Assembly: GCA_963770565.1 (NCBI GenBank)
Contig: CAVYQE010000006.1
Span: 32,001-96,000, forward strand
From: an uncultured Actinomycetota bacterium
Lineage (GTDB): Bacteria > Actinomycetota > Actinomycetes > JAFAQI01
DNA length: 64,000 nucleotides
Direction: 5' to 3'
Shown here: one piece after another, positions 62,581-63,292 of the stretch
How the letters are laid out: every line of letters starts with the position of its first letter
Position numbering within the stretch: position 1 is the first letter of the stretch
Notes under the pieces: model-generated
The model's input: the letters and a program-made list of their open reading frames with translations, nothing else
Told to the model about the DNA's origin: nothing
The model's database searches: none
Translations under genes and position numbers: made by a program

Positions 62581-63051
62581 ATGAAGCTGGCAGAGGCACT
62601 CGCGCTACGGTCCGACGCGGTCAAGCGGGTCGAGCAGCTGCGTGCGCGGGTGCAGACGAACGCGCGCTACCAGGAGGGGGAGGAGCCGACCGAGGATGCC
62701 AACGCGCTGCTTGCGGAGGCCGACCGGGGGCTCGACGAGCTCGAGGCCCTGATCCGGCGGGTCAACCGCACCAACGCGACGACGAACGTCGAGGACGGGC
62801 TGACGCTCACCGATGCGCTCGCACGTCGCGACGTACTGCGGCTGCGGCACGCGTTCTGGACCCGTGCGGCGGACGCCGCGTCCGGCCGCGAGTCGGGTGG
62901 CGGACACCGGCAGCTTCGTTCCGAGCTGCGAACGCTTCCGGCACTCCCGGTTCGGGAGCTTCGTGCGACCGTCGACGACCTCGCTCGCGAACACCGTGAG
63001 CTGGACGTCAAGATCCAGCGGGCCAACTGGGAGGCAGATCTCCTCGACTGA
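62581..63051 (+). CDS. DIP1984 family (DUF6847-like) coiled-coil protein
   Basis: MKLAEALALRSD, ARYQEGEEP.ED, LIRRVNRTN, TLTDALARRD, LDVKIQRANW; strong AAGGAGGT RBS. Confidence 0.88.
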   Translation: MKLAEALALRSDAVKRVEQLRARVQTNARYQEGEEPTEDANALLAEADRGLDELEALIRRVNRTNATTNVEDGLTLTDALARRDVLRLRHAFWTRAADAASGRESGGGHRQLRSELRTLPALPVRELRATVDDLAREHRELDVKIQRANWEADLLD

Positions 63052-63292
63052 GCGGTGACGACCACATGAGTCGGTAGCCGTCGAACGCGAAGCGAACACC
63101 AGCCGCACTGCGCCGGCGGCCAAATCACGGCGCAACCTGGCGCGCGATGGGCAGCGCAATCGGTTCAACTCCGGACCCACAGGGCAGCCCAGTACGGCGA
63201 ACCGGGGACAGGGCAAGGCGCACCACGCACTACCTGGTGTTGATCTCGATCGACGGTGAGGGTGGGTTTGGGGACCTGGTCCGTCACCGCTC
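63050..63292 (+). ncRNA. Candidate structured RNA immediately 3' of the DIP1984-family gene
   Basis: Three nested complementary pairs (63050-63060/63282-63292, 63078-63084/63250-63256, 63095-63102/63234-63241) and a GGTTCAACTCC T-loop; no credible ORF. Confidence 0.68.

Follow-up and report, generated by a model that had tools for sequence, protein, structure and literature searches.

Several described bacterial RNAs resemble the element reported here. YrlA, the bacterial Y RNA-like noncoding RNA that goes with the Ro orthologue Rsr, carries a mimic of the tRNA T-arm and D-loop, is closed by a long stem between its 5' and 3' ends, and adjoins the gene of its partner. tmRNA combines a T-arm and a D-loop analogue with pseudoknots and has a small dedicated protein, SmpB. 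The omega RNAs (reRNAs) of TnpB and IscB (HEARO) are located at or near the end of the gene for their ribonucleoprotein (RNP) partner, and RNA and gene form a mobile pair of patchy distribution. OLE, raiA, ROOL and GOLLD are long, intricate and covarying bacterial RNAs of unknown function that are known through comparative analysis. Here, we describe a structured RNA that shares traits with each of these systems. It occupies positions 63050-63292 of a 64,000-nucleotide (nt) stretch of contig CAVYQE010000006.1 from an uncultured Actinomycetota bacterium (the whole stretch is referred to as the window), and follows a gene of the DIP1984 family (Pfam DUF6847).

The element represents one member of a hitherto undescribed family: structured RNAs of ~230 nt that lie directly behind DIP1984/DUF6847 genes. 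Comparison of many copies shows its structure, its strand and its strict genetic coupling to the gene; the family is spread over phyla and plasmids, and RNA libraries contain it joined to the gene. We regard the existence of a gene-coupled structured RNA as practically certain. The family is defined by a helix P1, a AGNNGGUA junction, a helix P2, an RGCG/GA internal loop, a helix P3 and a GAGGGNGGG...GGGG strand, directly 3' of a DUF6847 gene, and all of these are found in the window.

Fold and conservation of the RNA element

The features of the gene and the RNA in the window are the following.

62581-63051, + strand: DUF6847/DIP1984-family gene, 156 aa, with ATG at 62581 and a TGA stop codon at 63049-63051
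63050-63064, + strand: 5' strand of P1, covering the final two stop-codon bases; partner 63277-63292
63069-63076, + strand: octamer AGTCGGTA of the P1/P2 junction (J1/2), pattern AGNNGGTA, in which GGTA is invariant
63077-63090, + strand: 5' strand of P2, in two segments; partner 63244-63257
63091-63094, + strand: internal loop AGCG, facing GA at 63242-63243; conserved
63095-63102, + strand: 5' strand of P3; partner 63234-63241
63103-63134, + strand: H-type pseudoknot, with hairpin 63109-63115/63128-63134 and loop GCGG (63116-63119) pairing with CCGC (63103-63106)
63142-63157, + strand: hairpin Ha (GCGC/GCGC), with loop GATGGGCA
63149-63190, + strand: second pseudoknot, GGGC (63149-63152, in the Ha loop) with GCCC (63187-63190)
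63160-63174, + strand: T-arm-like hairpin with a weak 3-4 bp stem and loop TTCAACT; CGG/TTCAACT/CCG at 63161-63173
63234-63257, + strand: 3' strands of P3 (63234-63241) and P2 (63244-63257)
63258-63273, + strand: G-rich strand GAGGGTGGG-TTT-GGGG in the gap between P2 and P1 on the 3' side; conserved
63277-63292, + strand: 3' strand of P1, the end of the RNA element
63351-63380, + strand: terminator-like hairpin with a T-rich tail, ~60 nt past P1; weak evidence

P1 is formed by GAGCGGTGACG at 63050-63060, which makes 11 perfect pairs with 63282-63292 and is extended, past a one-base bulge, by ACCA (63061-63064) with TGGT (63277-63280). The core of P2 (63078-63084 with 63250-63256) lies inside a 13-nt arm that is 85% complementary. 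The first-pass annotation of the window, made from the sequence alone, had placed P1, P2, P3, the inner hairpin and a T-loop hairpin here, and all are present at those coordinates; P1, P2, P3 and hairpins also appear in the minimum-free-energy fold of the region. We add two pseudoknots and hairpin Ha, which revises the centre of the fold. The terminator-like hairpin was the only site in a consensus terminator scan, with 0.6 expected, and could equally be used by the convergent ETF-alpha gene.

Chance inverted repeats, a miniature transposable element or a large terminator might also leave nested repeats of this kind, and folding energy gives no argument to the contrary: it is ordinary for the G+C-rich DNA of the region and no better than that of dinucleotide shuffles (z -0.90 on the + strand and -1.53 on the - strand). 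The case therefore depends on comparative evidence, which is strong. Perfect nested helices of at least 7 bp number four in 63040-63300, a count reached by none of 300 mononucleotide shuffles (six reached three); a perfect inverted repeat of at least 11 occurred in five of the 300. The 4.43-Mb genome contains no second copy, as the next BLAST matches have E-values of 0.22 or worse and the covariance model described below finds one match. Dispersed copies away from the gene, an alternative raised in the first-pass annotation, are thus not seen, and an origin as a dispersed repeat or miniature transposable element was rejected.

Covariation was examined in three alignments. A3 (84 rows, including four weak spurious matches) and the broader A6 (69 rows) were fitted to a model and so are biased towards the model's structure, while A4 (56 rows) was built with MAFFT and without a model. 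In A3, 83.5% of cells are paired, as against 26.6-36.3% with slid partners; in A6 the value is 86.4%, while slid partners give 33.7-40.8% and shuffles 66.2%. Changes on both sides occur at 54 of the 57 A6 pairs, and none of 500 shuffles reached any of the measures. The helix equivalent to P1 covaries at 8/8 pairs in A3, with 96.7% (A3) and 92.3% (A6) of cells paired. P2 (helices 3 and 4 of A6) has 85.5% and 96.2% of cells paired and both-side changes at all 12 pairs, and is confirmed in the model-free A4. P3 is paired in 99.6% of A4 cells, and its six pairs all covary in A6, as do all seven pairs of the inner hairpin (63109-63115/63128-63134) in both A3 and A6.

The flank-loop pairing is present as at least four contiguous pairs in 72 of 80 sequences; its mean length is 4.45, compared with 3.85 (sd 0.09) for permuted partners, and no value as high was seen in 1000 permutations. 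For Ha, the four positions hold standard pairs in 36, 37, 38 and 55 of the 56 A4 rows, with GC-to-AU and CG-to-UA changes at 4/4 pairs, and the remaining rows suit a register shifted by one base. A test with flexible spacing was not discriminating for Ha (81/83 vs 76/83 in a parallel control). The GGGC-GCCC pairing is complete in A4 (100% of cells, both-side change at one of four pairs) and nearly so in A6 (helix 8; 98.9%, both-side changes at three of four). Because Ha closes the loop that bears the GGGC, this pairing is a pseudoknot. Pairing in a single register is low in A4 for P1 (59.8%), Ha (38.7%) and the flank-loop pairing (61.7%), which we attribute to register shifts; A4 gives no independent support for these three. 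G-U pairs are frequent (A3 pair 53-336 in 26 rows, pair 344-365 in 52 rows) and place the RNA on the + strand, since the opposite strand would have A-C mismatches.

A number of unpaired stretches are highly conserved. GGUA of the P1/P2 junction is present in all 56 A4 rows and within the first 80 nt of 71/72 metagenomic members. The two G residues of the RGCG/GA loop are invariant in A4, and the loop recurs in the elements of Picosynechococcus, Acinetobacter and Psychrobacter. The G-rich strand GAGGGNGGG...GGGG is nearly invariant in A4, and was found in 68/72 metagenomic members and in the cyanobacterial plasmid copy. Other invariant or nearly invariant stretches are GCCCAGCA and an ACC ahead of the 3' strand of P3. 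A kink-turn at the P2/P3 internal loop was considered and rejected: the first P3 pair in A6 is AU in 58 rows, GC in five, UA in five and CG in one, and this Watson-Crick covariation does not match the kink-turn pattern.

The element is therefore far more than a terminator, as first proposed, with helices that covary across phyla (A3, A6). Chance repeats, a miniature transposable element and a large terminator are refuted by this covariation, the single genomic copy, the shuffles that never match the nested-helix count, and the occurrence at 80/80 loci described below, and we give them next to no credence.

Coupling of the RNA to DIP1984 genes

BLAST comparison with relatives showed the gene and ~230 nt behind it to be conserved jointly in five genomes of four genera, with different DNA beyond. 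A covariance model built from six copies (R1) matches the window at 63046-63299 with 265.9 bits; E-values from R1, and from a second model (R2) introduced below, are rough. Among 36 genomes of the window's family, six have strong R1 matches (E 8.4e-50 or better), and the DUF6847 domain (PF20935) was found in the identical six genomes, always directly upstream of the RNA. A weak R1 match in a further genome (G035; E 0.0016, 20 bits), where the DUF6847 gene is absent, was treated as noise. In an even choice of 151 genomes from the class, each at least 90% complete, seven have the RNA and the identical seven have the gene, each in a single copy, with the RNA beginning 4 nt past the Pfam match on the same strand. 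We found no credible case of the RNA apart from the gene among the 36 and 151 genomes searched.

The same arrangement holds across named Actinomycetota. For the best 80 of 168 protein relatives in contigs from one genome per species, the RNA immediately follows the gene, in the same orientation, in all 80 (R1 E-values 2.5e-78 to 2e-09). These loci include Actinoplanes, Micromonospora, Salinispora, Amycolatopsis, Nocardia, Mycobacterium, Rhodococcus, Kitasatospora, Streptomyces, Pseudonocardia, Microbacterium and Acidimicrobiales. Among 80 of 502 metagenomic protein relatives, 73 have the RNA: 72 by R1 (E 0.01 or better), with G+C contents from 0.38 to 0.73, and one (L207) by R2. The RNA starts at the stop codon or within ~25 nt of it, and the distance from stop codon to P1 varies. 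The tie to the DIP1984 gene that the first-pass annotation had drawn from one locus is thus borne out by co-occurrence (6/36 and 7/151 genomes) and by the adjacency at named loci. A scan of 401 class genomes for the exact pattern found only six close relatives and chance matches, the pattern being too strict; another pattern match (L213), with neither an R1 match nor the gene, was discarded as chance.

No other gene takes part in this coupling. The 80 named loci have no conserved neighbour genes, and the only clusters found at many loci consist of the gene itself and overlapping reading frames. The DEAD-box helicase encoded near the element in the window has a homologue at only one of the 80 loci, from the same genus; a functional link was rejected, and the helicase does appear to be incidental, as had been suspected.

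Plasmids, viruses and other phyla

Of the 371 plasmid records that encode the DIP1984 protein, Acinetobacter accounts for 341 and Enterococcus for 17; the remaining carriers are Streptomyces, Mycobacterium, Picosynechococcus, Paracoccus, Psychrobacter and Aeromonas. Each of the plasmid loci that we retrieved has several hundred unannotated bases behind the gene. R1 matches these on plasmids of M. avium (E 1.9e-25) and Picosynechococcus (E 3e-10), and the RNA was also matched on a Streptomyces plasmid (E 4.9e-21). R2, for which only 20 low-G+C members from metagenomes, plasmids and viruses were used, matches an E. faecium plasmid and the matching record labelled as phage (E 8.7e-16), a Psychrobacter plasmid (E 3.4e-09) and the A. 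baumannii plasmid pA85-2 (E 4.3e-06, 19 bits); it scores the window at 80.4 bits (E 1.4e-27). Inspection by eye shows that P2, the RGCG/GA loop and P3 are retained in the distant plasmid copies, with compensatory changes; P3, for one, appears as AGCAC/GUGCU, AGUAC/GUACU or AGUGU/ACACU. Gene and RNA occur together on one IMG/VR contig, and the module is also present in a few phage records. The RNA thus spans Actinomycetota, Cyanobacteriota, Pseudomonadota and Bacillota.

This distribution bears on a special case of a protein-RNA partnership, in which the pair would be a conflict module, either a protein-RNA toxin-antitoxin system or a phage or plasmid defence or counter-defence system. Patchy occurrence (6/36 and 7/151 genomes), the frequency on plasmids (371 records, 341 of them from Acinetobacter), the viral contig and phage records, and the window's type IV restriction-like and NERD neighbours would all suit such a role. 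In type III toxin-antitoxin loci, the RNA consists of tandem repeats and precedes the gene of an endoribonuclease toxin, whereas here the RNA is downstream of the gene, no notable tandem or direct repeats were found and the protein belongs to no PADLOC family. Moreover, the window's neighbours are not conserved, and defence-like genes are not common to other loci. We therefore consider a conflict module quite unlikely.

Some plasmid copies have features of separate interest. On M. avium plasmid pS2b (L127), tRNA genes at 808-882, 2023-2096 and 2207-2281 flank the module (Rfam tRNA, E 6e-08 to 4e-12). At the Enterococcus locus (L126), a T-box leader adjoins the DIP1984 gene at 798-1028 on the - strand, upstream of a peptide ABC transporter gene; its score of 86.8 bits falls slightly short of the Rfam threshold of 93. 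In some records, among them A. baumannii pA85-2 (L125), E. faecium (L126) and the plasmid collection, the DIP1984 gene is labelled "septicolysin". In the available portions of the literature, the gene is treated by that name as a putative cytolysin or virulence factor, and those portions do not mention an RNA. Our results, which contain nothing in favour of a cytolysin, suggest that the label is without basis; the protein is a helical bundle of ~150 aa with an RNA behind its gene.

Transcription with the gene

Because P1 starts at the stop codon and leaves no room for a promoter, co-transcription with the gene is supported. In Enterococcus, a strong intrinsic terminator is located past the RNA and not past the gene. 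Contigs from RNA libraries of a cultured relative, 90-95% alike, cover a Salinispora locus (L052) whose gene occupies 1501-1965 and whose RNA spans 1950-2199. Two of them bridge the gene-RNA junction, spanning 1503-2444 (library X2) and 1582-2152 (X5), with depths of 2704 and 2018 vs 84.5 and 136 over the upstream flank, although contig depth is a poor gauge of RNA level. Library X1 has two 60-nt contigs in the RNA core, at depths of 25,000 and 2,223. From a soil metatranscriptome (X9) came 22 contigs, and all eight listed pieces fall in the RNA core (1986-2129). The contigs give no RNA ends, strand or level, and no weight is given to the parts of L052 left uncovered in X5 and X9 or to the libraries with small shares (X3, X4, X6-X8 and X10-X16). 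What they show, and all that we read from them, is that RNA libraries contain the element joined to the gene, in agreement with the co-transcription originally proposed from the window.

In the soil data, six contigs from different relatives have an adapter directly ahead of L052 positions 1986-1991 (where P2 starts, just past the AGCAGGTA junction), and other contigs end at 2101/2155. The adapter positions could reflect a common processing site or a reverse-transcription stop.

An RNA that is always transcribed behind one gene could be a purely cis-acting element of the 3' untranslated region (UTR) that governs the fate of the DIP1984 mRNA, so that a stable complex with the protein would be unnecessary. 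It might protect against 3' exonucleases, direct 3'-end formation or processing, or act in translation termination or recycling at the adjacent stop codon, and host factors that recognise tRNA-like shapes may be involved. The constant position in the transcript, at or within ~25 nt of the stop codon, fits this account, as do the overlap of P1 with the stop codon in the window, the lack of any RNA apart from its gene in the 36 and 151 genomes, and the terminator past the RNA in Enterococcus and perhaps in the window. However, a stabiliser or terminator needs neither ~230 nt nor two pseudoknots nor unpaired nucleotides that are invariant across four phyla, and the variable distance from stop codon to P1 argues against a precise role in termination. 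We see a purely cis-acting element as a credible account, though one with a distinctly minority share of the probability.

Likeness to tRNA

The T-arm hairpin of the window is weak, with a stem of only 3-4 bp. Most actinobacterial members have a textbook T-arm with a covarying stem of 4-5 bp and a 7-nt TTCRANY loop; in A4, 97.4% of its cells are paired and three of four pairs covary. It was also found in 39/72 metagenomic members, including low-G+C ones. The T-loop noticed in the first-pass annotation is upheld, and the arm, weak in the window, is canonical in most of the family. Since a minority of members lack it or have a plain hairpin in its place, the T-arm cannot be an essential core of the RNA.

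For comparison, the window's genome has 62 tRNA genes, and 54 of them contain the T-loop 10-mer motif class. The D-loop is located near the 5' end of tRNA genes, and the AGNNGGTA pattern is found near that end in six of the 62, one of which carries the identical octamer of the window. From these sequence matches, the T-arm and the D-loop-like junction could make a contact like that of the tRNA elbow. ARAGORN identified no tRNA or tmRNA gene in window positions 60000-64000 and none in 23 loci with a canonical T-arm, and we rejected identity with either.

The conserved T-arm and D-loop-like junction also invite the view that the RNA acts autonomously, as a tRNA mimic or decoy or as a ribozyme, with an activity independent of DIP1984 binding; its link to the gene would then reflect joint expression or movement, or regulation or chaperoning of the RNA by the protein. 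The deep X1 core contigs (25,000 and 2,223, vs 136 over the gene) and the confinement of the soil X9 pieces to the RNA core, with adapters at 1986-1991 and 2101/2155, point the same way, but these contigs show neither ends nor level and the soil matches may mark only the conserved part. The acceptor end is absent, the ARAGORN searches were negative, and the perfect co-occurrence suggests that the RNA depends on the gene. We judge an autonomous RNA unlikely.

One difference in the protein accompanies the absence of the arm in some lineages. The T-arm-less copies of Picosynechococcus, Acinetobacter, Psychrobacter and Enterococcus are found with proteins whose loop between helices 3 and 4 is shorter by 4-5 residues (columns 101-112 of protein alignment A5). 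Actinobacterial T-arm-less copies do not have the shortened loop, so phylogeny alone may account for it.

The DIP1984 protein and the surrounding locus

The gene product matches Pfam PF20935 (E 9.5e-51) and NCBIfam NF038048 (E 3.9e-53), and its profile matches PDB entry 3KDQ (E 4.9e-34), an "uncharacterized conserved protein" that is the solved structure of a Corynebacterium diphtheriae relative of unknown function. The DIP1984 protein is predicted to be all-helical, with four helices, and in protein alignments a basic stretch, RRINRTN, is conserved and numerous Arg, Asn and Gln residues are invariant. Longer proteins that contain the domain number only four and are mostly singletons, and a search of the ESM Atlas with the DIP1984 protein returned unnamed clusters only. 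HEPN-like active sites have the motif Rx4-6H; such a site was considered for the DIP1984 protein and dropped because the His of the window protein aligns with an Arg in 3KDQ. An AlphaFold model (m575f789716bf, pLDDT 82) superposes poorly on 3KDQ (TM score 0.45-0.48, root-mean-square deviation ~17 Å) despite 151 aligned columns. The packing of the helices may be different in the crystal, as it would be in an oligomer or a swapped form.

In the window, the ETF-alpha gene downstream is on the opposite strand, which places the element within a convergent spacer of 354 nt. The DIP1984 gene has upstream neighbours that encode a DEAD-box helicase, a NERD-domain protein and a type IV restriction-like protein. 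The helicase gene (60965-62442, - strand) seems to be broken or mis-assembled: the DEAD domain (E 1.7e-45) is in an open reading frame whose C-terminal half has no domain, and the Helicase_C end is weakly detected (E 0.0026) in a different frame at 60965-61276. An open reading frame of 1020 aa (56837-59899, + strand) matches the PADLOC type IV methyl-directed restriction enzyme (E 5.4e-259) and adjoins the NERD-domain gene (60015-60893, - strand). This defence-like neighbourhood is absent from other DIP1984 loci.

A putative two-part ribonucleoprotein

On balance, we lean towards the reading that the folded RNA is a dedicated partner of the DIP1984 protein in a two-part RNP, in which binding is inferred. 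The coupling to the gene, the covarying structure, the co-transcription and the basic RRINRTN stretch of the protein speak for it. The RNA, transcribed with the DIP1984 gene as the 3' part of its mRNA, folds, in order, into P1, the AGNNGGUA junction, P2, the RGCG/GA loop, P3 and the H-type pseudoknot, followed by the hairpin whose GGGC loop pairs with GCCC in the second pseudoknot, the T-arm in most members and the G-rich strand. It might serve the protein while still attached to the mRNA or after being cut out, and RNA and protein would move as one unit. The T-arm and the D-loop-like junction may offer a surface like the tRNA elbow, which could either make a tertiary contact within the RNA or give the tRNA machinery a handle.

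Several observations weigh against this partnership. Co-inheritance and adjacency are equally expected of a purely cis-acting 3' UTR element. The DIP1984 protein has no recognised RNA-binding domain, and Foldseek at E-values up to 0.001 yields 3KDQ alone. The folding energy is, as noted above, no better than that of shuffles, and DNA may be present in the RNA libraries. Some copies are also incomplete: the T-arm is absent or a plain hairpin in 33/72 metagenomic members and in the cyanobacterial, Acinetobacter and Enterococcus copies, and the G-rich strand is missing from the Acinetobacter copy. Finally, seven metagenome loci are not counted among the carriers of the RNA. Three of these extend no more than 20 nt beyond the gene, and a fourth no more than 166 nt. 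L159 and L142 have adequate downstream sequence, the former with no match and the latter with a truncated gene and only a weak match. L179 has only a weak, displaced and truncated R2 match (E 0.00098) at 1803-1856, ~650 nt past the gene, where an insertion may have separated gene and RNA or the match may be noise.

A more specific version of the RNP reading, which we regard as doubtful, is that the pair forms a new class of mobile RNP in which a tRNA-elbow mimic on a pseudoknotted scaffold engages the tRNA or translation machinery. Its targets might be RNase P, T-loop modifying enzymes, the ribosome or tRNA-targeting toxins.

Comparison with known systems

The first-pass annotation had matched the element to no recognised RNA family. 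Searches of Rfam 15 agree, with no match over the element on either strand in window positions 60000-64000 (E up to 10), in eight diverse actinobacterial loci or in six plasmid loci. A full-text literature search found no paper for DUF6847 and none for "septicolysin" together with "riboswitch"; in the text available to it, DIP1984 appeared only in plasmid annotation and 3KDQ only in unrelated papers. We found no description of a DIP1984-linked RNA, although papers or supplements outside the search could hold one.

Within Actinomycetota, the nearest likeness is to Ms1 and other 6S-like RNAs, which are abundant structured RNAs of 200-300 nt in actinobacterial intergenic regions. According to the accessible part of the published account, Ms1 is flanked by genes for an oxidoreductase and a HAD-IB hydrolase/phosphoserine phosphatase (PMC9130861). 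The element is flanked instead by DUF6847 and ETF-alpha genes, and we dropped an Ms1 identity because the flanking genes differ. The DIP1984-linked element, unlike Ms1, also occurs outside Actinomycetota.

The systems with which we began differ from the element in other ways. It has no match to the Rfam Y RNA models, is about twice as long as YrlA, has two pseudoknots and lies within the 3' UTR of its partner gene, whose product is a helical protein of 156 aa; moreover, no TROVE/Rsr gene (PF05731) was found in the window's genome (94.9% complete). In contrast to tmRNA, it lacks an acceptor/CCA end and a tag reading frame, and its T-arm is interior, away from the 3' strand of the closing helix. 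Compared with the omega RNA/reRNA systems, the DIP1984 protein has no nuclease domain, the locus has no transposon ends or repeats, and there is no Rfam match. Nor does the element match the Rfam models of OLE, raiA, ROOL and GOLLD, from which it is further set apart by its one-to-one association with one small protein family and its fixed position in the 3' UTR.

An RNA of ~230 nt with two pseudoknots and a tRNA-type arm, present in at least four phyla, has apparently gone unnoticed until now. For structural and biochemical work it offers a new fold that is compact and well defined and has many natural variants, and an RNA partner would be the first functional lead for the DUF6847/DIP1984 family, whose 3KDQ structure has been orphaned since 2009. 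If the more specific version with the tRNA-elbow mimic holds, the mobile RNP, carried from host to host on plasmids such as the small ones of Acinetobacter, where its gene is mislabelled "septicolysin", would rank with Ro-Y RNA or tmRNA-SmpB.

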